Numbered from the stretch's first letter, positions 515 to 25,377 are shown. The stretch: DNA of 26,493 bases from a virus (IMGVR_UViG_3300028595_000056:1-26493), one strand, 5' to 3'. Program-made: numbers and translations. The notes: a model not told the origin generated them from the letters alone.

Positions 515-828
515 TGAATTGCGCCCGTTGTAATAATATCGTTCTACGCGCAGAGGTCAAAGAGGGCCTTTGTCCTAAATGCCAAAACGAACTACCTGAA
601 GTAACACAGGCCCGCATTGCCATATCTTCTGGCCGCGACCTGTTAGCCAAGATGTTCATTGACGGCGGTATATTCTCACAGATGCAGGATGCTAGGGATA
701 TGGCCGTTCAGAACTTCTTACTTTCAATAGTACAGGAAGCCCTCAACCAAGACCCAAGAAAGTACAAAGCCTTGGTCGAGCGGTTTGTAGACAATGTTAT
801 AGAAATTTCAGGAGCAAAACATGAGTGA
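514..828 (+). CDS. Bbp19-like small head-module protein with N-terminal CxxC..CxxC zinc ribbon
   Basis: TAATG coupling to the portal stop. CARC...CPKC at the N-terminus, then SGRDLLAKMF...IFSQ...AVQNFLLSI, resembling the Bbp19 family found between portal and scaffold. Confidence 0.6.
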   Translation: MNCARCNNIVLRAEVKEGLCPKCQNELPEVTQARIAISSGRDLLAKMFIDGGIFSQMQDARDMAVQNFLLSIVQEALNQDPRKYKALVERFVDNVIEISGAKHE

Positions 829-1606
829 AGAGGCAACGGCCCAAGAGGCAACGGCGGAGGCTGATGCTCATTGGACAACCGGGAATGAAGAGTTTGCGGC
901 AGACGAGGTTGTGAGTAAAGCGGTCAGCAAATTCGACTCGCCTTACAAGTTAGGGAAGTCTTACGCAGAACTAGAAAAGAAGTTGGGATCTGAATTTAGA
1001 ATCCCAGACGACGTTAGCAAATTATCAGACGAACAGAAGGAGGCATTGAACGCCAGAGTCAAGGAGTTGTCCGGTGCGCCGAAGTCTATTGAAGACTATC
1101 AATTGGACATCCCCGAGGAAATGGTATCGCTAATCGACCAGGACGCAGTTCAGGCGATCAAAGAGACGGCGCTAGAGAAGGGAGCGACTCAAGATCAACT
1201 GAACGCTATTACCAAGACTTATATGGATAATCTCGCCGCTGCTTATAACAAGCAGGTCGAGGCCCGTAATGAAGCCTTGGATGCCTACAAGAAAGAATTG
1301 GGGTCAAAGGCCAGTGAGGTGCTGGGAACCGTAGACTCCGCAGGCAAGACGGTCGAACTCGGTAACGTGCAGAAGGCGGCTATGCAACTCTCAAAAGAGT
1401 TGGGTTTGGACTACGTCGATTCAGACGGTAAGCCAAAGTCAAAACTTTGGGACGAGTTGGAGATGACCCGCCTTGGCGATAAGGTGTCTCTCTGTAAAGT
1501 GTTTGATTGGATTTATAAGGAAAAGTTTGCTGAGGGCGCACCTACCCCCAGCGCCGGGACGGCACAGGAGTCTGAGTCGTTCTTCGATTACCCCAGTATG
1601 AATTAA
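821..1606 (+). CDS. Capsid scaffolding/assembly protein
   Basis: GGAG SD. Acidic and helical, with KSYAELEKKLG and APKSIEDYQL motifs typical of podoviral scaffolds. Lies directly upstream of MCP. Confidence 0.8.
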   Translation: MSEEATAQEATAEADAHWTTGNEEFAADEVVSKAVSKFDSPYKLGKSYAELEKKLGSEFRIPDDVSKLSDEQKEALNARVKELSGAPKSIEDYQLDIPEEMVSLIDQDAVQAIKETALEKGATQDQLNAITKTYMDNLAAAYNKQVEARNEALDAYKKELGSKASEVLGTVDSAGKTVELGNVQKAAMQLSKELGLDYVDSDGKPKSKLWDELEMTRLGDKVSLCKVFDWIYKEKFAEGAPTPSAGTAQESESFFDYPSMN

Positions 1607-1700: not shown

Positions 1701-2717
1701 ATGTCAGAATATAATATCAATTCCCAATGGACTCTCCTTGAGAGAGCCAAGCGTTCGGCTGATGGCAAGACCATTCTGCCGATCCTCGACGTAATGGACA
1801 AGCGCGGCGTTCAGGACTTCCTGAAGGATGTCCCGTACTTTGCGGCCAACATGGGCCTCCAAAACCGCATTGTCCGAACCACTTCCCATCCCTCTAGCAC
1901 TCGGCGCTCGTTCTATCAGGGCGTTGGCGCTACTGCGGTCACGACTCAGGTGGTCTGGGAACCGTTGATTCTCTTTGAACAGCGTTCCTCGATTGACGAA
2001 GATCACCTCGACACCGTGGATAACCCCAAAGAGGCACGTCGCCAAGAGGATGAAGGTCACATGGCTGGACTCCTTGAGGACTACGTTACCGCCATGTTCA
2101 CCGACGCTCGTACATCGGGCGAGGAGTACATTGACGGTTTCGCGGCCCGCACCTCGACTCTGTCCTATCCCGGCCATACCACCACAACGTATCCCTACTG
2201 TTGGAACACCGGTGGAACCACGGACCTGTCCTCACTGTATATCGTAGAATGGGGCGGTCAGGCTTGCCACGGTCTGTATCCCGGTGCCAAAGCCGGGAAC
2301 ACGGGCATGTTCGGCATCTCTGCTCGGGACAAGGGCAAAGAGCCTGTCTTGGATTCCTCTGACAACACCTACTATGCCTACGTAAGTCAGTTCAAGAAAT
2401 GGGCTGGCCTCGCTGTTCACGACGACCGCAAGTTCTGCCGCATTGCCAACATTGAGTCTTCGATTACTTCCACCAACGGGATTGATGAAGATTTGATTAT
2501 CCAAGCGATCAACCACGGCAAGTTCAATCTGAGCAGCTCTCGCATCTATGTCAATCCTTACCTCAAGTCGCAGATCGACAAAAAGGTAAAGGACAAGGCT
2601 GGCTCGGCGTGGAGCATTGTGGATACGTTCGGCAAGGCTGTTCCTGCCATCTGGGGCATTCCGGTCCGCGTTCTGGACGATACCATTCTGACCAACAGTG
2701 AGACCGAGGTAAGCTAA
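1701..2717 (+). CDS. Major capsid protein (BPP-1 Bbp17/epsilon15-like HK97 fold)
   Basis: 338 aa. TLLERAKR start, GGTTDLSSLYIVEWGGQACHGLYP, WAGLAVHDDRKFCRIANI and GIPVRVLDDTILTNSE match the Bbp17-type MCP pattern. Confidence 0.92.
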   Translation: MSEYNINSQWTLLERAKRSADGKTILPILDVMDKRGVQDFLKDVPYFAANMGLQNRIVRTTSHPSSTRRSFYQGVGATAVTTQVVWEPLILFEQRSSIDEDHLDTVDNPKEARRQEDEGHMAGLLEDYVTAMFTDARTSGEEYIDGFAARTSTLSYPGHTTTTYPYCWNTGGTTDLSSLYIVEWGGQACHGLYPGAKAGNTGMFGISARDKGKEPVLDSSDNTYYAYVSQFKKWAGLAVHDDRKFCRIANIESSITSTNGIDEDLIIQAINHGKFNLSSSRIYVNPYLKSQIDKKVKDKAGSAWSIVDTFGKAVPAIWGIPVRVLDDTILTNSETEVS

Positions 2718-2729
2718 GGAGTTTTTACC

Positions 2730-3161
2730 ATGAGAGACGCATTTGAATTTTCCAACGCACAAGCGCTTGCTACTCTTGACAGCACCGGCGTTGTGTCAAC
2801 GAACATTTGGGATCTGGAAGAGGACGCTGTTACGGACGGTCAGGTTTACGGATGGCTGAACGTGAAGATCCTCTCCACGACCAATACAGGCGGCGATAGC
2901 GGGCTTTACATCGAGCTTCGCTCTGCCGACAACACGAATATGTCCACCACGCCGATTTACCTTGGCGCTGCCCTTCTGACCCAGGCTGAAATTGTTGCCG
3001 GCGCGGTAGTGTCCATCGGGGTTCGTAAGTCGAACTGCGAGAAATATATTGGTGTGTGGTACAAAACAGTTAGCGAATCCCTTACCGGGGCCACTGCCGT
3101 AGATGCATGGTTCTCCCAGGCACCCGCCGGGGAACTGCGCATCCAGAAGAAGCCGAGCTAA
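2730..3161 (+). CDS. Bbp16-like capsid cement/decoration protein
   Basis: 143 aa. DAFEFSNAQAL...VSTNIWDL start and KYIGVWY..V...LTGATAVDAWF end match the Bbp16 jelly-roll family. Directly follows MCP; AAGGAG SD. Confidence 0.85.
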   Translation: MRDAFEFSNAQALATLDSTGVVSTNIWDLEEDAVTDGQVYGWLNVKILSTTNTGGDSGLYIELRSADNTNMSTTPIYLGAALLTQAEIVAGAVVSIGVRKSNCEKYIGVWYKTVSESLTGATAVDAWFSQAPAGELRIQKKPS

Positions 3162-3173
3162 AGGAGGTGTAGT

Positions 3174-3698
3174 ATGAGACTTCGCACTTTCATTGCTCTC
3201 TTGATCTTGGTTGCTGCCGGGATTGGGTTTGCTACGTTTACAAACTCAATGGATGGCGACCCGACCTCTTGGTATTGGACGGGCGGCACCAAAGACACCG
3301 GGCTTCTTTGGGCAAGAGAAGTAGAAGATTACCTTGACGGCACAACTGGTGTGGTTGTGAAGAACGCCGTAGAGGTATTCGACGCAAATGACACTTTAAC
3401 TGCTGCGGAAACAGGAAAGGTTTGCGTATCTGACGGGAAGGGGTCTGGCGACCTTGTTTTAACCCTCCCCGCCGCTGCTGCGGGCCTGACTTATACGTTC
3501 TACGATGCAAATGCGACCGCTGGCGATGATCTTTGGATCACTGCTGGCACGGGCGACACCATTAACGGCGGCACCGCTGCTAAGTCGTACAAATGTACCG
3601 GGGACGCTGTCAAACAGCACGTTACTCTTGTCGCTGCTGACGCGACACGCTGGGTCATTGTTGCTGAAAACGGCACATGGGCCAACGACAACAATTAA
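3174..3698 (+). CDS. Putative head decoration/fibre protein with Sec signal peptide
   Basis: Strong AAGGAGGT SD. MRLRTFIALLILVAAGIGFA signal-like N-terminus. TLTAAETGKV...LTLPAAAAGLTYTF...VTLVA...WVIV beta-domain commonly seen in phage proteins encoded after capsid genes. Confidence 0.7.
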   Translation: MRLRTFIALLILVAAGIGFATFTNSMDGDPTSWYWTGGTKDTGLLWAREVEDYLDGTTGVVVKNAVEVFDANDTLTAAETGKVCVSDGKGSGDLVLTLPAAAAGLTYTFYDANATAGDDLWITAGTGDTINGGTAAKSYKCTGDAVKQHVTLVAADATRWVIVAENGTWANDNN

Positions 3699-3718
3699 CT
3701 TCCCTACCTTTAGGCCGC

Positions 3719-3750
3719 GTGGGGGGCTTCGGCCCCCTGCCCGCCCTTTT
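3719..3750 (+). terminator. Probable intrinsic terminator/attenuator after the high-copy capsid genes
   Basis: GGGGGC-TTCG-GCCCCC (3722-3737, C-UUCG-G tetraloop), extendable by G-U pairs. Only a short TTTT at 3747-3750, offset from the stem. Confidence 0.6.
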
Positions 3751-3753
3751 GTT

Positions 3754-5274
3754 ATGACTAAAAAAGACATCACCATCCCGTTCCTTGCAATCATTGCTGG
3801 CATCATTGTAGGCATGTCCTGCATGGCGCACTCGGCTGACTATTACATCAATGGTTCGACCGGGCACGATACGAACTATGACGGCACCAGCCCGACAGTG
3901 GACGGTGGCGGTGTAGGGCCGTGGGCAAGTCTCAGCAAGGCCACCAGTACGCTCACGGCGGGGCAAGTTGTTGAGGTTGCGGGGGGCACATACGTTGGTG
4001 ATAGCAATCGCATTTCAGAGACAACTTCTGGGTCTGATGGCTTACCAATCACATACCAAGGTGCCAGCGGCGAAACTGTGATACTAGATGGCTCTACGAT
4101 GTCTGGTTCTCCGGTGTACTTAAACGGCGCGTCGTGGATTACGGTAAAGAATTTCACGATAAATGACAGCGCCATTCAGGGCGTTGCTATGGCCGGGGAT
4201 ATTTCTGGTATTGTTTTGGAAGACCTGCATATCGACAATCCCAAAAACGCCGGGATTCATTGTGACCTTGCTGGGTCGGTGTCTGACTTGACGGTTACAG
4301 ATGTCAACATTGTTGACCAGAACTCCACCGGAAACACTGGCGCTCTATATTTCAACGACTGCAACACGATAACCTTCACTCGTGTTACGATAACGAACCC
4401 TGCCCGTGACGGCTTCTGGGGGTACGGCAACTCTGATGTTACGTTTGATAGCTGCTACATCGAGGGGCAACAGGAAAACCCAGACCACCAGGATGCCATC
4501 CAAATTGGTGACTGCAATGGCCTGGTCATTAAAAACTGCATCCTACACTCAACCAGCCAAAACATCTACTTTGGCGTGAACAACACACTCTACGACCAGA
4601 GCGAAGAACGCGACGTGTATATTTATGGCAACACGATATACAACGAGTATTGGTTTGATTTCAACGAATATGGTAGCCAGGGGATAATTTTCTCCGAGGC
4701 AACTGCCGTAACGGGGGCAGAGGACACAGATGTAAACGGGATGTATATATTCAATAATACAATCTTGTATTGCGGGTTCAACGCTATCCTGGTCCAACCG
4801 TCAGAATCGCCAAGAGATAATGACGCCAACAACATTGTAATTATGAACAACATCATCGTGGACAGCCCCAGCACTCTTGATGGTGGCGACCAGGACGACA
4901 AAATACACTCTGACTGGAACTGGTACTGGACATCAGGTACAGGACAGACAGGGAGTGGATTGCCTGGGCAGGCAACTTCGGCTACGGCTACAGCACCGGC
5001 ACTTGAAGATGCTAATAGTACGTCTGGCACGTCTCCTCAGTTTACGAACTATAATGCGACAACATACAACTGGACTGTAGCCACATACACGGGCGATAAC
5101 ATTGAGAACCAGGGCTGCGGCCTAGCCGCCCTGCAAGCGAAGATCCCCGGCATTAGTTCGTGGACCGACCGAAGCGGCAACACGCATGACGGATCTGAAC
5201 CCGGAGCGTATGCATACTCTGCGGGCGAGGCACCATCAACGAGGCAATGGTTATTGATGCGAGACAACAGATGA
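3754..5274 (+). CDS. Exported right-handed beta-helix (pectin-lyase-fold, tailspike/depolymerase-like) protein, 506 aa
   Basis: Start moved from 3505 to ATG 3754: MTKKDITIPFLAIIAGIIVGMSCMAHS-ADYYIN. GPWASLSKA, AGGTY, SGSDGLPITY, HQDAIQ, IYGNTI, IFNNTI and IMNNII beta-helix rungs. EPGAYAY near the C-terminus. Confidence 0.8.
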   Translation: MTKKDITIPFLAIIAGIIVGMSCMAHSADYYINGSTGHDTNYDGTSPTVDGGGVGPWASLSKATSTLTAGQVVEVAGGTYVGDSNRISETTSGSDGLPITYQGASGETVILDGSTMSGSPVYLNGASWITVKNFTINDSAIQGVAMAGDISGIVLEDLHIDNPKNAGIHCDLAGSVSDLTVTDVNIVDQNSTGNTGALYFNDCNTITFTRVTITNPARDGFWGYGNSDVTFDSCYIEGQQENPDHQDAIQIGDCNGLVIKNCILHSTSQNIYFGVNNTLYDQSEERDVYIYGNTIYNEYWFDFNEYGSQGIIFSEATAVTGAEDTDVNGMYIFNNTILYCGFNAILVQPSESPRDNDANNIVIMNNIIVDSPSTLDGGDQDDKIHSDWNWYWTSGTGQTGSGLPGQATSATATAPALEDANSTSGTSPQFTNYNATTYNWTVATYTGDNIENQGCGLAALQAKIPGISSWTDRSGNTHDGSEPGAYAYSAGEAPSTRQWLLMRDNR

Positions 5275-6032
5275 AACAGTTCATAATCGCAATTCTACTG
5301 CTATTAGTTGGCCTGACTGCCTATGCAGCCAATAACCCGACCGATGCCGTGTCCTGGTACAAGTTTGAGTCTGGGGCGCTGACGACCGACTCCCAGGGCT
5401 CCAACACCCTATTCATGACCGGCACCGTAGACGCCAATACCGCCGATTATCAAGAAGGTGCGGCGTCGGCGTTCTTCTCTGGCGGCTCCAACTACTTCAC
5501 CCAGGCCGACCTGGACATCTTCGCAGATGGCGACAGCAACGACTTCACCGTGACCTGCTGGGTGTTGCCGCGAGATACGGCGGCTACGCGCACAATCTGG
5601 GAGCAGTACGACATCGCCGGGGACCAGAGGGGATTCAAGGTGCAGCATGATGCTAGCGGCAACATCGTGGCTTATGCTGGGTACAATGGCGGCGCGGAGT
5701 ACGATACATACAATCCGTCTGGGATCACCTTAGCCGACGATACGTGGTCGTTTTTGGCTGTTACGTTCACAGACGTCAATGACGGCTACACGTTCTATGA
5801 GTATGACGGCTCAGCGCACTGGGCCGATGGTGTCCTGGATGAACCCATCCACCACTCAACCGACGACTTTCAGATAGGCGTGGCCGGGACCATTCAACTG
5901 TTTAATGGTTGTATCGACGAGATGATTATCTGGAACAAAACGCTGACCCGCGACGAGCTAGACCAAGTGCGACAGGGCACGTACGGCGCGGCAGATGAAT
6001 CCAGCGGCGACTTGGTGATTGTACTTAAATGA
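5271..6032 (+). CDS. Exported LamG/concanavalin-A-like lectin-fold protein, 253 aa
   Basis: ATGA overlap with the upstream stop. Signal MKQFIIAILLLLVGLTAYA. VSWYKFE, DFTVTCWV, WSFLAVT and FNGCIDEMIIWNKTLTRDEL are LamG_3 motifs. Confidence 0.85.
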   Translation: MKQFIIAILLLLVGLTAYAANNPTDAVSWYKFESGALTTDSQGSNTLFMTGTVDANTADYQEGAASAFFSGGSNYFTQADLDIFADGDSNDFTVTCWVLPRDTAATRTIWEQYDIAGDQRGFKVQHDASGNIVAYAGYNGGAEYDTYNPSGITLADDTWSFLAVTFTDVNDGYTFYEYDGSAHWADGVLDEPIHHSTDDFQIGVAGTIQLFNGCIDEMIIWNKTLTRDELDQVRQGTYGAADESSGDLVIVLK

Positions 6033-6118
6033 TGAAATATGCATTTTACATTTTGGTCGAGGTCGTTTCAATCGATGCCGGGCACACCCTTGATGTAATT
6101 ATGGCGGCTGCAAAATAA
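6029..6118 (+). CDS. 29-aa translationally coupled mini-ORF (possible deletion remnant)
   Basis: ATGA overlap with the LamG stop. Reads MMKYAFYILVEVVSIDAGHTLDVIMAAAK*. Its stop lies 2 nt before the next ATG and it fills the gap exactly. Confidence 0.5.
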   Translation: MMKYAFYILVEVVSIDAGHTLDVIMAAAK

Positions 6119-6120
6119 CT

Positions 6121-7620
6121 ATGAGAACATTCAAACTTCACATTCTATTCCTGCTTGTTCTAGCGGCCACAACAGCCACGATCTATGGGTCTGTGATGTT
6201 GGTCGTTGATGAAGAGAAGCGATCCTGGGGCAATCAGTTGATGATTACCCCTGGCGAGTATGGCTTCGGCATGAATACGGTTGCTGGGTCTGGTCGGCAT
6301 CTTGATCCTCCTGCGACGACGATATTTCATGTAAACGATATAAATGATTACAATGATGCAGAGTTCGCGGCCACGCCAGAAGACTACTACGGGACTTTAC
6401 GATATGCCATAGAAGAAGTAAACTCCCCAAAGACTATTGTTTTTGACGTTAGTGGTTATATAGCCACTAAGAGTCCAATATTTATAGGCTATAACGATCC
6501 AAATTTATCAGAGCAGAAAGGGTCTTATATTACAATAGCTGGACAAACAGCCCCTTCGCCTGGCATTTGTATAAAAAATTACGGATTAACTATTGAGAGA
6601 TGGGCGCATGATATATTGATACAGCATGTTCGCATTAGGCCAGGAGATCAATCTTTCACAGACTTAAACTGTCCAGATTGCCTAAAAGAATCTATAGGAG
6701 ACTGTGTTACAGCACTGTGGTCATACTATCCAGAATCCGACCCTCCAGTTTTACCGCCCAGAAAAATCGTCATGGATCATTGTTCGTTTACTTGGGGCGG
6801 CGACATGAATTTGCAACTTGGGGCTGTTGAAATGTCGATAATAAACTGTATCACAGGCGAGGCATTGCACAGCCCGTTACATCCAAAGGGGCCACACTCA
6901 AAAGGAATGTTACTTAGTGGATATGTCAATACTCCCGTGCCCGATAGAAATATACTTGTGGCAAAAAACTTATTTATAAGCAATGTTGATAGGAATCCCC
7001 GCATCGTTGCTCGCAATGCAGTTGTTGTCAATAATGTTTTTATTGATATTTGGTCTGGTATAAACTCAGATGACACTGAATGGCCAGACATACCACAAAA
7101 TACGTCTATTGCTGCAAACTATGCCATTGAAAGCGACGCCATGGACCCTGCTTTAGGCAACGGGCAGTTTCACGCTGTGTCGTTGATGAGCCAAGGCAAT
7201 CAGCTATACATTGGCGGTGATAGTTTCTATTATGGGGAGTTACAAACAGAGCCATATTATCACCCTAATGAGTATTGGGTGAACATAGATTATCCAGAAG
7301 GGTTGTTGGATTCACCTTCCCTTTGGCCGTATTATTTTCAGAAAAAAACAGCGGCAGATGCGTATACGTATGTGCTAGAAAATGTTGGCGCATTCCCTAG
7401 GGACTCTGTTGACAGCCGGTTAGTCACGACAGCAACGAATATAACTCCTGGTGAGCCGAATGGAATTATCGCAAGCGAGGATGAGGTTGGAGGTTATCCA
7501 GCGTTTGCAGAAAATGTGTCTGTGTGGGAAGAACCTGCGAACCCGAACGATTTACACGTATCTGGATACACAAATTTGGAGGTGGCACTACATGAAGCTG
7601 CTGCTGCTATTGAGCCTTAG
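6121..7620 (+). CDS. Exported pectate-lyase-like protein (polysaccharide lyase family 1 type)
   Basis: Signal-like MRTFKLHILFLLVLAATTATIYG. PGEYGFG, GTLRYAI, IVFDVSGYI, ITIAGQTAP, HVRIRPGD, DHCSFTWGGD, HSKGMLL, RNPR, PRDSVDSR and SGYTNLE match bacterial PL1 pectate lyases. Confidence 0.85.
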   Translation: MRTFKLHILFLLVLAATTATIYGSVMLVVDEEKRSWGNQLMITPGEYGFGMNTVAGSGRHLDPPATTIFHVNDINDYNDAEFAATPEDYYGTLRYAIEEVNSPKTIVFDVSGYIATKSPIFIGYNDPNLSEQKGSYITIAGQTAPSPGICIKNYGLTIERWAHDILIQHVRIRPGDQSFTDLNCPDCLKESIGDCVTALWSYYPESDPPVLPPRKIVMDHCSFTWGGDMNLQLGAVEMSIINCITGEALHSPLHPKGPHSKGMLLSGYVNTPVPDRNILVAKNLFISNVDRNPRIVARNAVVVNNVFIDIWSGINSDDTEWPDIPQNTSIAANYAIESDAMDPALGNGQFHAVSLMSQGNQLYIGGDSFYYGELQTEPYYHPNEYWVNIDYPEGLLDSPSLWPYYFQKKTAADAYTYVLENVGAFPRDSVDSRLVTTATNITPGEPNGIIASEDEVGGYPAFAENVSVWEEPANPNDLHVSGYTNLEVALHEAAAAIEP

Positions 7621-8677
7621 TTTTTGCACATTATGTGTTGCTGATGAATATGTTCGTTATGTGGATAGAGATGTTTCCGGTGGATTGGGGAATGGCCGCG
7701 ACCTTGATAACGCTTATTCATCTTTATCTGCATTAGAAATCGCAGAAGAAACTGATTTAACCGAAGACACAAACAATCTTGTAGTTTATCTAACTGCATC
7801 AAGCGGCACGGAGGATGAAACATCTGTCTATTGGGATGAATGGACAATGAGCGCAGACTATGACGTTACGCTTATTGGAGATGGATCATATACACTTCAT
7901 AATAATGACACTGATGACACTGCGTTTAGACTACGGGATACGCACATAACATTCATTGGAATAAACTTCAAAGTGACAGCAACTGGATCATCTGATCGTT
8001 ATTGTTTCTTTTCTAGTGGATTCCCTGCTGGATCTTGGTTAATTGATAGTTGCACATTTGAAGGCGTATCAAGTAGTTCTGGTTCAGTTTATGGAATATA
8101 TCAAACAGACCCAGATGGAACAAACTTAACTGTTGTTAATAGTATATTTACTGGATTTGTTAATTCTACAGACGATGAACACGGAGGAATATGCAATACT
8201 GCTGGGACGCCATCAATCTATAATTGTACTTTTTATGGGAATAGATTTGGCACAATAGGATCATTTAGTGCAATAACAAACTGCATCGCCGGAAACAACT
8301 CTAACGCAGATTTTGGCACAACAACGAATGTAACTTATTGTTGTTCTGACGATAAAAGCGGGAGTGATGCCCAAGGTCCAATTGGTGGAGACTGGACAAA
8401 CGAGATGACATCCCCGTCAACTGGCGATTTCACTCTTGTTGTTGACGGGAATTGCGTTGGCAACGGCACAGACGACCCTGGCTCTGGCCTATACGATGAC
8501 GACATAGAAGGAACCGCCAGGTCATCAACTTGGGACATCGGTGCTTACGAATACGTAGCACCAGCAGCAGGCGGCACCACAATAACCCCCGGCGCAGTCC
8601 AGCGTAGACTGCGATCTGAATATCTACTTCTTCTATTACCTTTGACAATTCCATTTATCCGCAGGAGAAAAAAATGA
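7592..8677 (+). CDS. Exported beta-helix protein with choice-of-anchor-Q-like end and C-terminal hydrophobic/basic tail, 361 aa
   Basis: Start moved to ATG 7592 (GGAGGT SD upstream). MKLLLLLSLSFCTLCVA signal. AYSSLSALE, IYNCTFYGN and DIEGTARSSTWDIGAYEY. Ends YLLLLLPLTIPFIRRRKK. Confidence 0.75.
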   Translation: MKLLLLLSLSFCTLCVADEYVRYVDRDVSGGLGNGRDLDNAYSSLSALEIAEETDLTEDTNNLVVYLTASSGTEDETSVYWDEWTMSADYDVTLIGDGSYTLHNNDTDDTAFRLRDTHITFIGINFKVTATGSSDRYCFFSSGFPAGSWLIDSCTFEGVSSSSGSVYGIYQTDPDGTNLTVVNSIFTGFVNSTDDEHGGICNTAGTPSIYNCTFYGNRFGTIGSFSAITNCIAGNNSNADFGTTTNVTYCCSDDKSGSDAQGPIGGDWTNEMTSPSTGDFTLVVDGNCVGNGTDDPGSGLYDDDIEGTARSSTWDIGAYEYVAPAAGGTTITPGAVQRRLRSEYLLLLLPLTIPFIRRRKK

Positions 8678-9885
8678 AACGATTAACGATTTTGGCATGT
8701 GTATGTATGCTGGCTCTTGCGGGGTACGTTGGGGCCTTAGAGATCCGCTCCTATCCAGGGGCCACGAACCTGACAATCCCGGTCAGGGCGTTTGATGTTA
8801 ACGGCGACCCTAACACATCTGTTGTCGTGACAGACTGGGAGGGGTTCTACAAAAAAGAGGGTGCGGCACCCGTGTCGTTTGGTGCACTTACACCGAAAGA
8901 CGCACACGCAGACACGCACGTAGACGGCAACGCAATCGGAGATTCCAACGGGTGGGTGGATATTGATGTTCCAGATGCAGCGTTCAGTGGCACAGTAGGC
9001 ACAACCGTCGTGATTGGCGCTGTTGATGGAACGTCTGACGACACCAAAGACAAAATTATAGAAACTACGGTGTGGCTGATACAGGATGCAAATGGGCTGC
9101 TACAGGTGGTGGTTGTCGATGCATCTAGCGCTGCGCCGCTTATTACCTCGGACCAGCTCTACACGGGTTCTGAGTTAGGCGACAAGATTGTGGCTGACAT
9201 GGACGCCAACAGTACGCTTCCAGAGCAGACTGTGACGGCTCTTGTTGCTGATGCAAACTGGACTAGCCTAGTGACTGATGCGAACACTGCGGCACAGGCA
9301 TCAGGAGCTACCCCGGCAGCTATTGTAACCGAACTTGTAACAGACGCCAACTGGACATCTCTGGTAACTGATGCCAATACTGCGGCTATCGGGGTTGCAA
9401 CCGTAGATAACGGTGCCATTGCCGATGAAGTAGTGACACACATGGACGCAAACTCCACACAGCTTGCTGCCATTGTGGAGGACACCGGAACTACCATCCC
9501 TGGCACGATTACTACCATTGACAACGAAATCGCTGTTATTGATGGCATTGTTGATGATATTAACGGATTTGTAGACACCGAGGTCGCTGCAATACTTGAA
9601 GATACAAACGAAGTTCAGGCTGATGGCGTTATGATTACTGCCGCAGCGGTAAATGCTGTCTGGGCTAAAACCATGTCTGACTTGTCTGCTGGCAACCCGC
9701 AAGTAACAGAAAGCGTCCTTGCTGCATTGACAAGAATTTGGCTTGCTAACTTCGGTAAGGTTGTTACCAACGGCACGAACGATGAGATCGAATGGTACAA
9801 TGATGCCGGAACAAAGATAGCCGAATCGCCATTCTCGGACGACGATACTGACTTTACCAAGAACAATGCTGGGGCGAATGACTAA
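8674..9885 (+). CDS. Exported acidic fibre/stalk-like virion protein with internal repeats
   Basis: AGGAG SD and ATGA overlap. Signal MKRLTILACVCMLALAGYVGA. N-terminal beta domain, heptad-like IAVIDGIVDDI segment, and C-terminal VWAK...AALTRIWLANFGKV...IEWYNDAG domain. Confidence 0.65.
   Translation: MKRLTILACVCMLALAGYVGALEIRSYPGATNLTIPVRAFDVNGDPNTSVVVTDWEGFYKKEGAAPVSFGALTPKDAHADTHVDGNAIGDSNGWVDIDVPDAAFSGTVGTTVVIGAVDGTSDDTKDKIIETTVWLIQDANGLLQVVVVDASSAAPLITSDQLYTGSELGDKIVADMDANSTLPEQTVTALVADANWTSLVTDANTAAQASGATPAAIVTELVTDANWTSLVTDANTAAIGVATVDNGAIADEVVTHMDANSTQLAAIVEDTGTTIPGTITTIDNEIAVIDGIVDDINGFVDTEVAAILEDTNEVQADGVMITAAAVNAVWAKTMSDLSAGNPQVTESVLAALTRIWLANFGKVVTNGTNDEIEWYNDAGTKIAESPFSDDDTDFTKNNAGAND
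9181..9465 (+). repeat. Nested A-B-B-A coding repeats (MDANST x2; DANWTSLVTDANTAA x2)
   Basis: DKIVADMDANST...VTALVADANWTSLVTDANTAA...VTELVTDANWTSLVTDANTAA...DEVVTHMDANST. Protein identity is kept despite many synonymous DNA differences. Confidence 0.85.
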
Positions 9886-10127
9886 TGAAGAAGAAACTTT
9901 TCATAGTCGCTGTCTTGCTGCTCACGTGCGCTGTGGCGTGGGCAGCAATGGACTCAGAGAACAAACGTCGCGCAGCACAGGGCAACATGCTCCCGGTAGC
10001 AGACGCTAACATAGGTCTTTTTGATAGGGGGATGCTTGCTGGAGTCTACATAGCAGACGGCAACGTTGCCGCGCCTGTTGAAGTTAATAGCGTCATTATA
10101 AGGTGGCACCACCACTATCACGACTAG
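9885..10127 (+). CDS. Small exported phage protein with His-rich C-terminus
   Basis: TAATG coupling. Signal MKKKLFIVAVLLLTCAVAWA. Mature AMDSENKRRAA..LPVADANI..FDRGMLAGVY; ends WHHHYHD. Confidence 0.7.
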   Translation: MKKKLFIVAVLLLTCAVAWAAMDSENKRRAAQGNMLPVADANIGLFDRGMLAGVYIADGNVAAPVEVNSVIIRWHHHYHD

Positions 10128-10136
10128 GAGAAAAAA

Positions 10137-10577
10137 ATGAAGAAAGCAGTAATATGGCTAATGTGTTGCCTCTTAGTTGCTGTGGCGCTTGGGGCAACAA
10201 AAGACGACAGAAACGACGGTATGAGGCCAATTGGGAAGTTGCAGTTCACCCAACAGTCTTGGGCGTCTGGTGTAACGGACGCCGCAACGACATCTATAAA
10301 CAACTGCAACATGCTCATCGAGCGGATAGATGTTGTCGCGTCGAACTCTACCAATGCGATTACATGGTCCGTGGCTATTGCCGACGAGAACGCCGCCGAT
10401 GTCATTCCAACGATCTCAAGTATCCCAGAGAATGATACTACGACTAAGCTTGCCACGAAGGCTACGGCAGACTTTGACGCCATCCCGGTGAATAACACCC
10501 TGACGGTCACAATCACCCCCTCTGGCGATCCAGGCGCGTCTGGCGCAACTGTCGATGTCATCCTTTACGGACCCTAA
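10137..10577 (+). CDS. Exported beta-sandwich virion-type protein
   Basis: AGGAG SD. Signal MKKAVIWLMCCLLVAVALG. Alternating beta-strand pattern (IERIDVV, ITWSVAI, TLTVTIT, TVDVILY). Confidence 0.7.
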   Translation: MKKAVIWLMCCLLVAVALGATKDDRNDGMRPIGKLQFTQQSWASGVTDAATTSINNCNMLIERIDVVASNSTNAITWSVAIADENAADVIPTISSIPENDTTTKLATKATADFDAIPVNNTLTVTITPSGDPGASGATVDVILYGP

Positions 10578-10579
10578 TT

Positions 10580-11221
10580 ATGGCGACCAAGACTGAGATA
10601 TGCAAATACGCTTTAGCCAAGATAGGCGGCGGCGCACAGTCCAACCAGATCACGGATGTTGACACAGATGGTACAACTACGGCTGATCTGTGTGTGGACT
10701 TCTATGATATTGTGCGCAAGGAAGTGATCTCTCGCGGGTATTGGATTGAGGCCACCAAGTACGCCGATCTGGACAACGCCACCGTAACGGACAAAGGTGC
10801 CTGGTCGTATGCCTCAGATGCGCCCACCGACTATCTGTCCAGGCTCAAGGTCATCTATGAGCAGACCCATACCGTGATGCACCCAGAGAAGATCCAACCG
10901 ATTCGCCACCAGATGATGGGCAGCTATGTCTTTACCGACCTATACACGAACAGCGCTGGCGATAAGGTTCACGCCATGTACGTGTACGACCTATCTACAG
11001 AGGCCAGCTTTTCTGTTCAGTTGGTAGAGGCCATTGCCACAAAGCTTGGTGCCGAGCTTGCCCCGGTGATTATCACAGAGGACGGCGGCTATCACCGAAG
11101 GATGAACCTGCTCAACGAATACGAAAAGTTCCTGCCCCAATGGCTGGGCGAGAACCAAATGTCTAACTATCGGGACGATCAGGGGGCTGCTACGTGTTTA
11201 ACTATCGCACGCTGGGAATAG
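10580..11221 (+). CDS. Tail tubular protein A / adaptor (T7 gp11-like)
   Basis: MATKTEICKYALAKIG, CVDFYDIVRKEV, WSYA..PTDYL and FS..LVEAIATKLGAELA motifs. Lies directly before the nozzle gene; no signal peptide. Confidence 0.85.
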   Translation: MATKTEICKYALAKIGGGAQSNQITDVDTDGTTTADLCVDFYDIVRKEVISRGYWIEATKYADLDNATVTDKGAWSYASDAPTDYLSRLKVIYEQTHTVMHPEKIQPIRHQMMGSYVFTDLYTNSAGDKVHAMYVYDLSTEASFSVQLVEAIATKLGAELAPVIITEDGGYHRRMNLLNEYEKFLPQWLGENQMSNYRDDQGAATCLTIARWE

Positions 11222-14079
11222 TCTTAATCCTCGGGGCCGTCGCTTTCGCGGCGAACATAACCCTTACCTCGTTTAATTCGGGCGAAGTCTCTCCGTACAT
11301 GAAGTACCGCAGCGACTTTGCCAAGTATGATAGTTCCCTCCAGACTCTCCAGAACATGATTGTACTGCCCCAAGGGCCTGTAACCCGCAGGCCGGGGACG
11401 AAGTACATTGCCACCACTCACACTGACTACCACCACCTCAACTGTCGCCTGATCCCATTCAAGTATTCAAGCGATGACGCCTACGTGCTGGAGTTCGGGT
11501 CGTCTTACATGAGGGTCTTCCGTAACGGCGGCAGGGTAATGGACCCCAACGACGGCAATGAACCCTATCAGATTTCAACCCCGTTTGCGTCTGCTAGTAT
11601 CTATGACATAAAGTTCGTTCAGTCTGCCGATGTCATGTACTTTGTAGACGGCGACTATCACCCACAAAAGCTTACCAGAACTGACCATGATTCGTGGGCG
11701 TTTGAGTCACTTTATTTTGATGGCACAGGCCCATTTATTAGCGAGAACACTACTGATGTAACGCTATCTTTTACGGGCACTACTGGCGACGTGAATGTAA
11801 CGGCGTCAACAAGTGACTTATTTGAGATTAACGATACTTGGTCTGTGTGGTCTGCAAGCCACGCCTCAGGGCCGAATACATTAACCGGCGACCTTACCTC
11901 TGACGCCAACTCTGCCGAGATTATTGTACAGGGAAGCTATTATTTCTCTACACATGGGACTTGGACGGGGCAGGTTACGCTTGAGCAGTCTATTGATGGT
12001 GGCGATACGTGGGTTGCTGCGCTGCCCACAGTTTATTCCAAGGGCGACAACAACGTATCAGAATACGGTATAGAAGACGATATAGGTGTTTTGTATCGTG
12101 TTAAAATGACCAATTACGGTTCTGGTACGTGTACATATTCACTTGCGCGGTCCAGTGATAGAGCAACTGGCGCTTTCTATATCAGCGGGTGGGAGGACGC
12201 CAACACCGTAGAGGCCACCATCCTGAGCGACCTTAGCTCTACATCGGCCACAACTCTATGGTCTAGGCCATACTGGTCTTTAGGAACTAGCTTCCCAAGG
12301 GCGATTGCCCTTCACGAACAGAGGCTTTTCCTTGGCGCGTCAGACGCCTATCCAAACACGATTTGGGCGTCAGCTACAGACGACTTTGAGAATATGCGTG
12401 CTGGCACATCAGATGACACGGCGTTTACCTTCCTTCTTTCTGGCAACAACTCAATTCAATGGATGATCTCAGACGAACACCTGTTCCTTGGGACTCTCGG
12501 GGGCGCTGGCAGGCTTGCCGCTGCTGGCACTGACGAGGCCATCACCCCAACGAACATAGAATACAAGCACCAGGGCAAGCACGGCAGTTCTTCGGTTCAG
12601 GCCGTGAGTGCTGGCGATGCCATCCTTTACCTTGAGCGCGGCGGCGTAAACGTCAGGGAGTTCACATATTCCTTTGAGCGAGATAAATACGTATCTCCAG
12701 ACCTAACCGTTCTTGCCGAACACATCACATCTCCCGGCATTATCGACATGAGCTATCAGTCGAACCCACATCCCATTCTGTGGTGTGTTAGGAGTGATGG
12801 GGTCATGGTGTCTTTGACCTATAGCCGAGAGAACGACATTGTAGCTTGGGCCAAACACGTTACAGACGGCGAGTTTGAATCTGTCTGTGTGATCCCCGGC
12901 GACGACGAAGACGAAGTATGGGTCACGGTTGCCAGGACCATTGACGGCAATGATGTGAGATACGTCGAACAGTTCCAAGATATGGACTGGGGCACAGCCT
13001 CATCGACTGGTGTTGTAGCAAATGCAGACAGCAACAGCTATGCCATTAGCGATGTAAACAACAAATCAACCAACGGTGTCTATGCAATAGGAAATGATTT
13101 CATAGAGCCGAACGAACAGAAAAATCCCTTGGCCCAGATTACTGGCGTGCAGGGAACGACAGAACTGAACGGGAATGTTTATTCACTTTTGGTTGAAGTT
13201 GCTGATCGCAACCAAGTTTATCTATTGAATCCAGATACTGCCGAGTACATCGACACAACAAATTTTGGCACTTATACGGGTGGCGGGACTATCCGCGAAG
13301 TCAATGTAACCCCGGCGGGTCTGTCTCAGGCCGATTGTTTCTTTGTGGATTCAGGTCTTTCATATAACGGGGGAACTTCTTTTCCTATTGACTATGTCAG
13401 GCGAACCTCTGCTGGGTGGCTGGTTGTTCCTAATAATGATTTTAATGACGGCGATCTTGTCGTCATCTATGGCGCAAGAAACATGACTGAAATTAACGGT
13501 CAGTCTTATGCCGTTAAGCCTGCCGCTGATGCGAACCATTTATATCTAAGGAATACCGCCAATACGGAGTTTGTAGACACAAGCGGATGGAATGCGTACC
13601 TTGGTGGTGGCCGCGTTTATCATGCTGCTATTACATTCTCAAACCTTGACCACTTAGAAGGCAAGACGGTTTCTGTTCTTGCTGACGGGAACGCCCTTTC
13701 TGACGAGGTTGTTTCCGGTGGGTCAGTGACTATAGATAAATGCGCCCATGACGTTCATATAGGTTTACCATACACTTCTGTCGTTGAGACAATGCCGTTG
13801 GTATATAATACCAAGGAAGGCTCAACCATGTCTTCGACTACCCGCATTGCGGAGGTCAGAACTAACTTCTATGAAACGCTGGGTTGTGAGGCAGGAACGA
13901 CGGCGTCTACTGAATCTGTTTTCTTCTATAAACCCACAGAATACACCGACAGCGTGGCCCCTCTTTATACGGGGTGGACGACACTACCAATGCTTCAGGG
14001 GTACTGGAACGACCCATCTCTGTACTTTAAACAAGAGAAGCCGTACCCTATGACAATAAGGGCAATCGTGGCTAAATGA
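11194..14079 (+). CDS. Tail tubular protein B / nozzle (T7 gp12-like) with N-terminal signal peptide and two FCCH-like insertions
   Basis: GTG start with AGGGGG SD. SFNSGEVSP..R.D..Y..N..PQG..RRPGT, RLIPF, YVLEFG, QSADVM, EQRLFL, VAWAKHVTDG, LDHLEGKTV.VLADG and GLPYTS are nozzle motifs. Confidence 0.92.
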   Translation: MFNYRTLGIVLILGAVAFAANITLTSFNSGEVSPYMKYRSDFAKYDSSLQTLQNMIVLPQGPVTRRPGTKYIATTHTDYHHLNCRLIPFKYSSDDAYVLEFGSSYMRVFRNGGRVMDPNDGNEPYQISTPFASASIYDIKFVQSADVMYFVDGDYHPQKLTRTDHDSWAFESLYFDGTGPFISENTTDVTLSFTGTTGDVNVTASTSDLFEINDTWSVWSASHASGPNTLTGDLTSDANSAEIIVQGSYYFSTHGTWTGQVTLEQSIDGGDTWVAALPTVYSKGDNNVSEYGIEDDIGVLYRVKMTNYGSGTCTYSLARSSDRATGAFYISGWEDANTVEATILSDLSSTSATTLWSRPYWSLGTSFPRAIALHEQRLFLGASDAYPNTIWASATDDFENMRAGTSDDTAFTFLLSGNNSIQWMISDEHLFLGTLGGAGRLAAAGTDEAITPTNIEYKHQGKHGSSSVQAVSAGDAILYLERGGVNVREFTYSFERDKYVSPDLTVLAEHITSPGIIDMSYQSNPHPILWCVRSDGVMVSLTYSRENDIVAWAKHVTDGEFESVCVIPGDDEDEVWVTVARTIDGNDVRYVEQFQDMDWGTASSTGVVANADSNSYAISDVNNKSTNGVYAIGNDFIEPNEQKNPLAQITGVQGTTELNGNVYSLLVEVADRNQVYLLNPDTAEYIDTTNFGTYTGGGTIREVNVTPAGLSQADCFFVDSGLSYNGGTSFPIDYVRRTSAGWLVVPNNDFNDGDLVVIYGARNMTEINGQSYAVKPAADANHLYLRNTANTEFVDTSGWNAYLGGGRVYHAAITFSNLDHLEGKTVSVLADGNALSDEVVSGGSVTIDKCAHDVHIGLPYTSVVETMPLVYNTKEGSTMSSTTRIAEVRTNFYETLGCEAGTTASTESVFFYKPTEYTDSVAPLYTGWTTLPMLQGYWNDPSLYFKQEKPYPMTIRAIVAK

Positions 14080-14426
14080 TAAGAGAGTTCACAGTACAAG
14101 ACGGAGTAGACATTTTAGGGTCTGAGGCCAGGGAAGACGCCGAACTGAACCAGATGTCAGGGCCGGGATATACAATGCTCAAAGGCGGCAAGACTGTAGC
14201 CTGCGGTGGTATCAAGATCGCTGGGGTTGGGGAAGCCTGGTTTGCTGCTGGCGAAGAAGCCAAAGATTATAAGATACAGATAGCCCGAGAATCCCGCGCA
14301 TGGCTGGATAGGATCATGGAGCAGCACCGTCTCTGGCGGCTCTTTGCCTATCCTGGCACGCACGAATCTGCAAGGCGGTTCCTGAAGTACATGCAATTTT
14401 ACCCTTACGACATTTACATGAGGTAG
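14076..14426 (+). CDS. gp13-like GNAT-fold virion assembly protein
   Basis: VACGGI...GVGEAW...ARRFLKYMQF; located between the nozzle and the ejection proteins. Confidence 0.7.
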   Translation: MIREFTVQDGVDILGSEAREDAELNQMSGPGYTMLKGGKTVACGGIKIAGVGEAWFAAGEEAKDYKIQIARESRAWLDRIMEQHRLWRLFAYPGTHESARRFLKYMQFYPYDIYMR

Positions 14427-14428
14427 AC

Positions 14429-14926
14429 ATGGACCCTTTTACAATAGCTATGGTTATCATGGCAGCGCTCGGCGCTGGCACCTCTGCTTACGCACAGAAA
14501 AGTGCAGCCGATACCCAGAAAAAGATGCTGGACCGCCAGGCAGAGGACGCCAAAATTGCCGCCGACGCCCAGAAGACAGCCGACAAGCTAAAGGCCCAGA
14601 AGGTCCGTGAGCAGGGGGAGAAACTCAAGGCCCGCCAAAGGGTGGCCTACGCAAAGAGCGGCGTCGTGGGCAACGTAGGAACGCCCCTCCTGGTTCAGAC
14701 AGAGGCCGCTAGAGCCGTCGAAGAAGAAGCCATGCTAGTTTCCCGGGAAGGCGATTTAGCGGCCATCAGTGGCCGCACACGGGCCGACCTGCTTCGCTGG
14801 CAAGGTGGTGTGGCATCTCGCGCCGGGGCATGGAAAGCTGGCAGCACGGCTCTCTCTGGCTTCTCTGCTGCCGGTAGCCTTTTAAGAGATAGTTCGGGCA
14901 AAAAATACGACGAGGTAGTAAACTAA
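14429..14926 (+). CDS. Internal virion/ejection protein (gp14-like)
   Basis: MDPFTIAM..AALGAGTSAYAQ start, QRVAYAKSGV...GTPL motif, Ala/Gly-rich. Confidence 0.8.
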   Translation: MDPFTIAMVIMAALGAGTSAYAQKSAADTQKKMLDRQAEDAKIAADAQKTADKLKAQKVREQGEKLKARQRVAYAKSGVVGNVGTPLLVQTEAARAVEEEAMLVSREGDLAAISGRTRADLLRWQGGVASRAGAWKAGSTALSGFSAAGSLLRDSSGKKYDEVVN

Positions 14927-16371
14927 TGCCTAAGATACCAATGCCAAATGACACCGCCACGCCCTCGGGCAAGTCTGGCGTGTCCACCGTCGTCAGCCCT
15001 GATTATTACGTTAGGGACGACCTTGCGAAGTCCCAGTTCTTCGACACGGTTACTAGGGAAGCTGTGCGCTGGGGGCAGCAGGCTAACCAGATTAACGCTG
15101 CCGCGAAGGTGTCCAAGTTCCAGAACGACCTACAAGAAGGCTGGAACATGACCGTAGCTGAGATGGAGCAGGACAACGACCCTGACAAGTACCCTCAGTA
15201 TTTTGAAGCATTCAAGCAAGGCATGGAAAGCCGCCTTGAACAGATGCAGGGGCCTGCCAAACAGATAGCTGCTAACAAACTCAACAGAGACATAGGGCAA
15301 TACCAGGGGAGGATGGAGTCATTTAAGCGGGGGCGGCAGAAAGACAATTTGCTTTCTGAGTATGAAAGGGCTGTTGAGAGCCTTAAAAAAGACGAGTTCA
15401 ACCCTGGCACTGTGCTAGAAGAAATTAGCGAACGTATTCGCCAGTCCGGTATATGGTCTGATGAAGAAGCCGCCGCAAGGCTTGAGAATGACATATACGC
15501 TGTGAACCTGGAAAGAACGCTAAACGAATCTCTTTCTATGCCCCTTAAGGATGCAGTTGACTACATCAAAGACTCGCCGCTTACCGAAGATGACAAGCGA
15601 AAGGTTGAGTCCAATGTTCGCCATCAAGAGCGAATGCGACAAGAGGACTTAGAAGCCCAGAACGCAGAAACAAGGCTGGACCTGCTAAAGCGTTCTGCAT
15701 CTGGCGTGGCAACGCCGAGAGAGATTGAATTGGCTGTTGCAGCAGAGATACTAACCCCCGGCCAGGGCGTGGCGTACCAGAAACTATTGTTGCCTCCCGA
15801 TATTGCGTTCACGCCCATTACGGAACTATCTAAGGCACTCAAGATACAGAACGCCGTTGCCCTTGGCAAGCCGCTTGAAGAAGCAGAAGTGGAGTTATCA
15901 GCACTCAACCTTACAAGGGCAGACCGCGAAAAGTTCGTTGCGGAGATCCATAAAGAGCATGACATCGCCCTTGCGTCCATTATAAAGAACGCCCGCAGTC
16001 GCATGGAGGAAATCATACGGGAAAAAGACCCGTTCTCTGGCGCGTTCACAGACGACGAGCGACAACAGATAGCAGCAGCTGAAGCGGACGTTGAGCTTAC
16101 CAATCTCATCCTAGACATGGTGGCTAAAGGCAAGCAGATCAACGAGGACGACCTTATCAAGCAGGCCATTGACAAGGCGCTAATAAAGAAAATGGGCATT
16201 GTATCAGACGAAAACAACAATCGGAAGACAGCGTTTAATCCCAAAAAAGTAGGGCAACCCAAAAACATTAGCGAGTTTATGACAAACCTGAAGAAGTTCA
16301 CCGACGCGGACGACCGAGAAGGGTTTGACGAGTATTGGAATAAATGGCTGAAGACACTACTACAGCAATAG
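14926..16371 (+). CDS. Internal virion/ejection protein (gp15-like)
   Basis: MPKIP start, 481-aa charged helical protein, TAATG coupling, position in the module. Confidence 0.7.
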   Translation: MPKIPMPNDTATPSGKSGVSTVVSPDYYVRDDLAKSQFFDTVTREAVRWGQQANQINAAAKVSKFQNDLQEGWNMTVAEMEQDNDPDKYPQYFEAFKQGMESRLEQMQGPAKQIAANKLNRDIGQYQGRMESFKRGRQKDNLLSEYERAVESLKKDEFNPGTVLEEISERIRQSGIWSDEEAAARLENDIYAVNLERTLNESLSMPLKDAVDYIKDSPLTEDDKRKVESNVRHQERMRQEDLEAQNAETRLDLLKRSASGVATPREIELAVAAEILTPGQGVAYQKLLLPPDIAFTPITELSKALKIQNAVALGKPLEEAEVELSALNLTRADREKFVAEIHKEHDIALASIIKNARSRMEEIIREKDPFSGAFTDDERQQIAAAEADVELTNLILDMVAKGKQINEDDLIKQAIDKALIKKMGIVSDENNNRKTAFNPKKVGQPKNISEFMTNLKKFTDADDREGFDEYWNKWLKTLLQQ

Positions 16372-21280: not shown

Positions 21281-21610
21281 ATGAGTGCAACAGATCAAGC
21301 GAAACTAAGACTCTGGATACGTGACGGCATTGCCATTATCATGTTCATGATAGGCGGGGTGAGCCTTTGGCACAACTCCGAGATAAAGCATGAAGCGTCC
21401 AAGCATGACAGACTGGAACTCCACCGTGTTATAGAAGAAACCAAAGAAAAGGACGAAACATCAACCATGAAGGTGATGGCTGAGATAAACCGCCACCGCA
21501 CGCTGGGCTGTGATGTCGCCATTCAGGCCGCTAAGGATGTGGCGGTCATAAAAAAGGACATTGAGTACATCAAGCAAGGGATTGGCAGGATTGAAGACAA
21601 GCTGCCTTAG
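21281..21610 (+). CDS. Single-TM, coiled-coil membrane protein (holin-like)
   Basis: AAGGAGAGG SD. GIAIIMFMIGGVSLW TM segment; DVAVIKKDIEYIKQGIGRIEDKL coiled coil. Last gene of the late operon. Confidence 0.55.
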   Translation: MSATDQAKLRLWIRDGIAIIMFMIGGVSLWHNSEIKHEASKHDRLELHRVIEETKEKDETSTMKVMAEINRHRTLGCDVAIQAAKDVAVIKKDIEYIKQGIGRIEDKLP

Positions 21611-25336: not shown

Positions 25337-25377
25337 TATGGTACGAAAGACCTATTAGCCTCATTATGAGGCGCTAA

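Follow-up and report, generated by a model that had tools for sequence, protein, structure and literature searches.

Signal-peptide-shaped leaders on the tail nozzle and other outer virion proteins of an uncultured podovirus point to a possible two-compartment virion assembly

Introduction

Tailed phages normally complete their assembly in the cytoplasm before lysis, and the known podovirus tail nozzles are leaderless and taken to assemble there. Whether the outer part of a podovirus virion might be matured outside the cytoplasm is the question raised by the virus record IMGVR_UViG_3300028595_000056, analysed here as a whole (linear, 26,493 nt, with an estimated completeness of 50%; further called the window). 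It carries a podovirus structural operon running from the end of the portal gene through scaffold, major capsid protein (MCP), a cement-like protein, eight further genes, head-tail adaptor and tail nozzle to four internal-protein genes. Judged by the nozzle, its nearest cultured relatives are the Pelagibacter Skadi phages (36%) and the epsilon15-like phages (about 30%). The original prediction, made from this sequence, was that nine late genes encode Sec signal peptides, that the head, adaptor and ejection proteins lack them, and that this split follows virion topology. The analysis presented here found a real feature, shared throughout the clade of this phage, with two independent sequence marks, the leader and a DAN/DPN/EPN tripeptide motif, which point to maturation outside the cytoplasm.

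Leaders in the late operon

All nine genes (named here by their starts: 3174, 3754, 5271, 6121, 7592, 8674, 9885, 10137 and 11194) did begin with a leader of signal-peptide shape, and each of the cleavage motifs proposed for them (GFA, AHS, AYA, IYG, CVA, VGA, AWA, ALG and AFA) was found in the sequence. The calls were made with a rule of our own, demanding a basic n-region, an uncharged 8-residue segment with a hydropathy of at least 2.4 and small residues at -3/-1. It recognised 9/9 leader genes and 0/10 other genes of the structural module (portal end, open reading frame (ORF) 514, scaffold, MCP, cement, adaptor and the gp13-, gp14-, gp15- and gp16-like genes; Fisher P 1e-5), and the proposed lack of leaders in scaffold, MCP, cement, adaptor and the gp13/15/16-like proteins was thereby borne out. 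None of 73 antisense ORFs was called, while the false calls on other phage genes amounted to a few percent (17/764 and 39/576 in leaderless loci). ORF 21281–21610, located downstream of the ejection genes, was also flagged; the N-terminus of the gp14-like protein was hydrophobic yet non-basic.

The nine leaders were 17–27 amino acids (aa) long, carried a net charge of +1 to +3 and reached a hydropathy of 2.65–3.81 in their best uncharged 8-residue segment; past the leader the best 17-residue hydropathy of the nine proteins was at most 1.62. Judged by eye, the eight leaders other than that of the nozzle had neither a twin-arginine motif nor a lipobox. Longer in-frame upstream starts exist for three of the nine ORFs (at 3505, 5247 and 7451), but the starts at 3754, 5271 and 7592 were preferred because the latter two abut the preceding stop codon and the first one comes after a hairpin. 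With these properties the nine proteins are very probably exported by Sec and cleaved by a signal peptidase.

The tail nozzle and its leader

The nozzle gene (11194), placed between the adaptor and the ejection-protein genes, matched the Carin-1 nozzle 8ck1 both in sequence (E 5.7e-165) and, as a predicted model, in fold (Foldseek TM-score 0.78). Its phrog_376 match begins at residue 20, directly past the predicted cut, and the known nozzles align from query residue 16–26 on. The set of homologues comprised 264 nozzles (the best 120 of 328 matches and 144 more among the best 150 of 18,139) and leans to close relatives; 110 of them had a leader, the window nozzle included, 141 lacked one and started from the mature end, and a further 13 were excluded, 12 of them as unclear and one as misaligned. 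A basic n-region was present in 108 and a small-residue -3/-1 site in 109 of the 110 leaders, which together had 13 acidic residues among 2020, no twin-arginine motif and four lipobox-like sequences. The identity across the leaders was 0.17 compared to 0.53 directly downstream, i.e. the shape has been kept while the sequence diverged. The -3/-1 site lies 7–18 residues ahead of the first invariant glycine, where the leaderless nozzles begin.

This position bears on the possibility that the leaders are uncleaved anchors or docking helices, which would tether the proteins to the membrane or bring lipid into the particle. The cleavage is only predicted, and residues 4–18 form a helix, albeit of low confidence, in the nozzle model. 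However, a -3/-1 site in all but one of the leaders, just where the leaderless nozzles start, argues against permanent anchors, the basic n-region would still place the protein body outside, and the motif excess described below lies in the mature regions, making such a role very unlikely.

Another explanation would be cytoplasmic assembly from a leaderless form translated from an internal start, with the leader-bearing form as a by-product or a superinfection decoy. One relative nested in the clade (G837) and two database proteins from it do begin at the mature N-terminus, and 7/27 loci had an in-frame ATG in the zone of the leaderless start. In the window nozzle, however, no start codon (ATG, GTG or TTG) occurs in frame from the leader up to the conserved FNSGE motif, and an internal Met was found in 21/110 nozzles against 15.8 expected, i.e. 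at chance level, so that a dual start was not supported for want of a conserved internal start. Furthermore, the seven near-complete relatives had a single nozzle gene each, with a leader in six. With one nozzle gene per genome and no conserved internal start the leader-bearing protein must itself reach the virion, and the internal-start explanation is highly improbable.

In the tree of the propeller region the window nozzle belonged, with a support of 1.0, to a 72-tip clade, 69 of whose members had leaders. A single origin of the leader was not supported: 14 changes were counted on the 295-tip tree, with weak deep support, versus 78–87 with shuffled labels. The leader-bearing groups are separate on the tree, which implies several gains or losses. 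A 14-kb element that includes an integrase gene has a leader-bearing nozzle of the same clade (L171:6500–8998) as its sole virion gene and is possibly a phage satellite with its own nozzle.

Compartment split in related loci

The proposed signal-peptide pattern was followed in 26 related loci, chosen for a leader-bearing nozzle (the nozzle itself being circular here and left unused), and in 185 leaderless loci. In the former, leaders were called in 0/4 portals, 0/9 scaffolds, 0/12 MCPs, 0/11 cement proteins, 0/20 gp13, 4/21 gp14, 0/2 gp15 and 0/2 gp16 proteins, and in 1/17 adaptors, the last probably being a false call. The non-core genes between MCP and nozzle had a leader in 25/37 cases versus 1/8 in the leaderless loci. 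In loci where no MCP was found, the genes upstream of the nozzle had it in 21/35 versus 16/756; pooled, the two classes gave 46/72 versus 17/764. Upstream of the MCP the fractions were 5/35 and 2/13. A split along virion topology, as originally suggested, is upheld by these loci together with leaders that precede an ordinary mature start in three families and a host motif that marks the leader set.

Among individual families, a leader was present in 42/54 matches of the 3174 protein and in 13/46 matches of the 8674 protein (the query counted in both), most of the remaining 8674 matches beginning at the mature N-terminus, and in 1/4 of the 10137 homologues from leader-bearing loci. The model of the 3174 protein (predicted local distance difference test score 84.5) matched a CBA120 TSP4 domain (Z 12.6, root-mean-square deviation 2.1, 99 residues aligned) and the Pa223 capsid spike (Z 10.8, deviation 2.6, 94 aligned), and its predicted fold is like those of phage spike and baseplate domains. 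PHROG tail-spike families with leaders were found in three relatives (G828, G830 and G758).

Several of the proteins 3754, 5271, 6121 and 7592 could also be secreted host-surface morons, the virion parts then being limited to the nozzle plus a few fibres or spikes. Beta-helix, LamG and pectate-lyase families are common among secreted bacterial proteins, the GC content is lower where genes 6121 and 7592 are located, the 7592 protein has a hydrophobic and basic tail, and among the 211 loci no homologue of the four was found save one of 5271. On the other hand, these genes occupy the capsid-to-adaptor slot, which is leader-bearing in the relatives at the ratio given above, the tail-spike families bearing leaders there contain the same domains, and the nozzle would be left unexplained. 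This explanation, which is compatible with export of the virion parts, is a minority possibility. The proteins 3754, 5271, 9885 and 7592 each end in a linker and a short hydrophobic stretch that includes basic residues or His; these ends are possible attachment hooks or, for 7592, a possible sorting signal.

In G837 the nozzle and a gp17-like fibre are both leaderless, starting from the mature N-terminus, while three late proteins besides these two have kept their leaders, as has a small lipoprotein-like gene (L431:17798–20000). In T7-like phages, according to the available part of PMC10575957, the gp17-type fibre docks between adaptor and nozzle. The joint loss, although a single case, fits a shared compartment of nozzle and fibre. 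In some relatives the adaptor is extended at its N-terminus by a domain of about 100 aa (L351:9365–10324 and L168:2875–3828), and this domain shows homology (E 2e-20 and 3e-13) to the beginning of the mature part of a fibre-like protein that bears a leader.

The DAN/DPN/EPN motif

The motif was first spotted by eye in the window, so that its count there is post hoc, while the later sets are independent of the discovery; such tripeptides also occur in Sedimentisphaerales proteins. In the window, the nine leader-bearing proteins contained 21 sites versus 3.6 expected and the ten leaderless ones 2 versus 3.0; 7592 and 10137 were the only two of the nine without it. In the nozzle set (EAN counted too), 236 sites versus 72 expected were found in the leader-bearing and 55 versus 62 in the leaderless proteins, with at least one site in 78/110 and 32/141 of them, respectively, and with 69 positions used. 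A similar excess was found in 52 other leader-bearing proteins (61 versus 19.7 expected), in contrast to 113 leaderless fibre-like controls (23 versus 24.4). P-values for these counts overstate the significance, since related sequences are not independent.

The same bias was present on the host side, for which 40–280 kb were sampled from nine genomes of one Phycisphaerae order, six of them chosen via contigs from a search for STT3. The exported-type proteins of this order (n = 161) had 94 sites versus 31.4 expected, the non-exported-type proteins (n = 567) 87 versus 76.7, and the exported-type proteins (n = 65) of eight control genomes, one of which yielded none, 13 versus 11.0. The excess was found in host regions of seven genomes (G002, G003, G758, G571, G795, G812 and G728; L271–L383), with DPN (46 versus 9.5 expected) more biased than DAN (25 versus 13.8). 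When a tripeptide is in excess in exported proteins that are unrelated but come from one lineage, a modification site is the simplest explanation. The motif may therefore be an acceptor for a periplasmic modification by the host, most likely a glycan, a reading that we regard as somewhat better than even. The link by this motif between leader-bearing phage proteins and exported host proteins is new here.

Access to periplasmic modification had been offered as a reason for the export. The motif excess fits that part of the original prediction, while disulfide maturation as another reason was rejected: even and odd cysteine numbers were about equally frequent in 69 leader-bearing phage proteins (30/31), 110 nozzles (55/55) and 161 host proteins (73/69). 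The Bacteroidota O-glycosylation motif, D-S/T-[AILMVT], was rejected as well, being depleted in the nine proteins (11 versus 20.3 expected). The closest likeness is to PglB-type N-glycosylation, which has an acidic -2 rule (according to the available part of PMC4894442): an acidic residue stands two positions before Asn, and in exported proteins only. The D/E-x-N-x-S/T sequon was in excess in the window (12 versus 4.6 expected) and in a further count (194 versus 112). However, Ser/Thr at +2 was present in only 80/306 phage D[AP]N sites and 18/107 host sites, and Pro is common at -1.

Host assignment

The clade of the window phage includes five members binned into metagenome-assembled genomes (MAGs), three of which (G758, G002 and G837) were placed in one order by genome classification. 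The proteins of G758 were labelled Phycisphaerae, although the records of G002 and G003 are titled Pirellulales. Sedimentisphaerales are described as strict fermenters with the lowest GC content of the class (in the available part of PMC11266412), and the name was chosen for this order because its GC content of 0.43–0.55 fits. The host is quite probably of the Sedimentisphaerales type. Nozzles were present in 18 of 401 genomes of the order (six with leader, seven leaderless and five with the start not seen), and 11 other nozzles from 401 Planctomycetota genomes were leaderless. No integrated leader-bearing prophage with host flanks was present among the contigs examined.

Possible assembly route

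Taken together, the route considered probable as a whole mechanism is that nozzle, fibres and spikes are exported, modified in the periplasm and joined late to heads built in the cytoplasm. Head, portal, ejection proteins and adaptor would be made in the cytoplasm and the head filled there, while nozzle, fibres and spikes would be exported unfolded and then cut, folded and tagged in the periplasm. A shut portal valve would keep the filled heads waiting until the inner membrane opens at the end of infection and they are closed by adaptor, nozzle and fibres. The likely benefit would be a host-like coat over the outer virion surface.

In T7, as far as the available part of PMC6702177 goes, DNA is retained for a short time by the closed portal, the portal valve is reopened by the adaptor, and it is the nozzle that secures the genome; an adaptor bound to a filled head would, therefore, probably need the nozzle to follow soon. 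That filled heads stay closed up to a terminal opening of the inner membrane has about an even chance of being correct, and it is narrowly favoured over finishing at the membrane. The latter would be a membrane-coupled and possibly non-lytic route, in which single heads attach to the inner membrane or pass through it and are finished with the exported parts in the enlarged planctomycete periplasm. It would remove the gap during which DNA could leak, and the available parts of two sources describe an extended periplasm with inner-membrane invaginations in planctomycetes (PMC12673574) and a Phycisphaerae isolate releasing a different, 21.9-kb phage without lysis (PMC10945688).

The lysis genes of the relatives bear on the same point without deciding it. 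No lysis family was recognised by Pfam in 133 proteins of relatives, a subset of their ORFs that had no matched control of leaderless uncultured phages (43 of 56 called ORFs in G828, 41 of 64 in G830, 30 of 47 in G758, 9 of 54 in G004 and 10 of 59 in G829), or by PHROGs in a selected subset of 115 proteins. Five family searches were also empty, one of them with a silent control; the other four, directed at endolysin families in three complete records, had controls that worked. However, such ORF subsets weaken this support for a non-lytic release, the late operon of the window, like that of several relatives, ends in a small single-pass membrane protein, and no candidate for a membrane-crossing machine was seen; finishing at the membrane is, consequently, unlikely. 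The protein of this kind in the window (ORF 21281–21610) has a hydrophobic stretch at residues 17–27, with no family match and no counterpart in five related records. In G829, a leader-bearing phage outside the window's clade, two small genes without Pfam match (L353:1277–1570 and 1567–2094) resemble by eye an enzyme of the peptidase M15 type and one of the permuted papain-like type and are possible lysis genes.

Several observations weigh against late joining of exported parts to cytoplasmic heads. Sec export, cleavage and modification are all inferred from sequence, the leader rule also flags some proteins that are not exported (gp14 in the fraction given above and ORF 21281), and for four of the nine proteins the likeness is to secreted lectins or enzymes of the ordinary kind. 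By the T7 order of events, with the adaptor reopening the valve and the nozzle sealing it, a leaderless adaptor combined with an exported nozzle poses a timing problem. The leaderless nozzle and fibre of G837 imply that nozzle export is dispensable within the clade, and of the 13 binned nozzles of the Phycisphaerae order that could be judged, 7 are leaderless. Two of the five binned clade members were labelled Desulfobacterales and Neomarinimicrobiota, and the binning is only suggestive, because the contigs of the three members placed in the Phycisphaerae order, like the leader-nozzle contigs viewed, were phage-only, without host flanks. As to the motif, two of the nine order genomes (G550 and G815, both small samples) had no excess, and DAN is the preferred form in the phage (16/21 in the window) but DPN in G002 and G003. 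No full PglB/STT3 was found in 101 genomes of the order, which are incomplete; weak partial hits were obtained in 8/101, the eight proteins proving to be PMT_2-like (seven) or O-antigen-ligase-like (one) when scanned, and a search for STT3 in five MAGs gave no match.

Gene layout and neighbouring genes

The features of the late operon are collected in Table 1. Scaffold, cement, gp15 and gp16 were named from position, the scaffold also from gene order and gp15/gp16 also from size. The hairpin after gene 3174 is a weak, possible terminator that would group this gene with MCP and cement; it was not listed by the terminator scan, and both promoter and terminator scans of the window were at chance level. 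The NF041900 match of the 6121 protein was far under the cut-off, and the 7592 protein had no match among Pfam, PHROG and NCBIfam. Between two leader-bearing genes, a 29-codon ORF (6029–6118, +) begins with a short basic and hydrophobic segment and is possibly a remnant.

Table 1. Late-operon features of the window, with positions counted from its first nucleotide
Feature	Position	Strand	Basis or remark
Portal protein, C-terminal part	92..514	+	PF12236 weak, phrog_332; gene start outside the window
Scaffold-like protein, leaderless	821..1606	+	position, phrog_3742
Major capsid protein, leaderless	1701..2717	+	PF20911 E 1.7e-50, phrog_212
Cement-like protein, leaderless	2730..3161	+	phrog_427, position
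Spike/decoration-like protein, leader 3174–3233, 2 DAN motifs	3174..3698	+	predicted fold
GC-rich hairpin, UUCG loop and short U run	3712..3751	+	-24 kcal/mol, z -2.05
Right-handed beta-helix protein, leader 3754–3834; tailspike-like or secreted enzyme	3754..5274	+	PF13229 E 2e-11
LamG/ConA-like lectin-domain protein, leader 5271–5327	5271..6032	+	PF13385 E 3e-16
Pectate-lyase-like protein, leader 6121–6189, lower-GC stretch (GC 0.43)	6121..7620	+	phrog_27797
Family-less protein, leader 7592–7642, C-terminal tail short hydrophobic and basic	7592..8677	+	
Fibre-like protein, leader 8674–8736, 8 DAN/DPN motifs	8674..9885	+	fibre role inferred
Small protein, leader 9885–9944, no family match	9885..10127	+	
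Small protein of unnamed viral family, leader 10137–10193	10137..10577	+	clusters mostly viral, recognition sub-threshold
Head-tail adaptor, leaderless	10580..11221	+	phrog_394 E 4e-21
Tail nozzle, 19-aa leader (11194–11250), 5 motifs	11194..14079	+	phrog_376 E 5e-187
gp13-, gp14-, gp15- and gp16-like internal/ejection proteins, no Sec-type leader	14076..21260	+	phrog_308, phrog_418, PF24072 weak, PF18760
Small single-pass membrane protein closing the late operon; candidate holin	21281..21610	+	position

Within the ejection set, the PF18760 match falls in a protein of 1638 aa, and the gp16-like protein (16344–21260, +) contains an ART-PolyVal ADP-ribosyltransferase domain at residues 704–823. 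On the opposite strand, a gene matching the anti-Thoeris protein Tad3 (22424–22861, -; E 1e-36) adjoins a Lar-like restriction alleviation gene (22889–23113, -). A cluster on the same strand (23603–26157, -) contains a PAPS-reductase-family gene (PF01507) and a GT9 heptosyltransferase-like gene in two overlapping ORFs (24696–25079 and 24256–24792, with PF01075 on the second). The start of a further ORF in it (23603–24268) resembles a sulfotransferase loop. The cluster could modify host or virion glycans.

Relation to known systems and implications

The operon shares gene order, PHROG families and fold with T7 gp12, Carin-1 gp44 (PDB 8ck1) and the epsilon15-type systems, differing in the 19-aa leader of its nozzle, as the known ones are leaderless. 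The T7-like nozzle caps the adaptor and holds the fibres (according to the available parts of PMC6702177 and PMC10575957). Leader-bearing virion parts do exist in a cultured tailed phage, as follows from the record of Cellulophaga phage phi18:3 (NC_021794), in which the leader-bearing gp085, gp086 and gp087 are annotated as virion proteins by tandem mass spectrometry (MS/MS). Nine other MS/MS-annotated virion proteins checked there, large tail proteins included, were leaderless, and so was its ordinary endolysin. It thus differs from the podovirus described here in having leaderless core tail proteins, as well as in its Bacteroidota host and in the rarity of DAN/DPN/EPN (two in the three proteins). 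Among filamentous phages (Inoviridae), coat and adsorption proteins have signal peptides and take the Sec route through the inner membrane; these proteins stay membrane-anchored and assemble around ssDNA during extrusion, in contrast to the portal, the PF20911 capsid and the soluble predicted mature proteins present here. In the open literature, as covered by titles and the starts of abstracts (subscription papers and supplements excluded), no description of an exported tailed-phage nozzle, of such an assembly route or of the motif was found.

In its most far-reaching form, the proposal would be that a planctomycete podovirus clade finishes its virion outside the cytoplasm, that DNA-filled heads cross or dock on the inner membrane and are sealed by an exported nozzle with an undescribed D/E-P/A-N modification of host origin, that release may occur without classical lysis and that the route can be switched off by joint deletion of the nozzle and fibre leaders. 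This combination is tentative and rather doubtful as a whole. Parts of the claim are open to test now with cultured Sedimentisphaerales and with phi18:3, and the motif offers a sequence-only handle for the host assignment of uncultured phages. Being shared by phage and host, the motif suggests that proteins of an anaerobic planctomycete order carry a modification not yet described. An exported nozzle, if true, would mean a two-compartment assembly line for a tailed phage, and the question of how filled heads stay closed would have to be answered anew.

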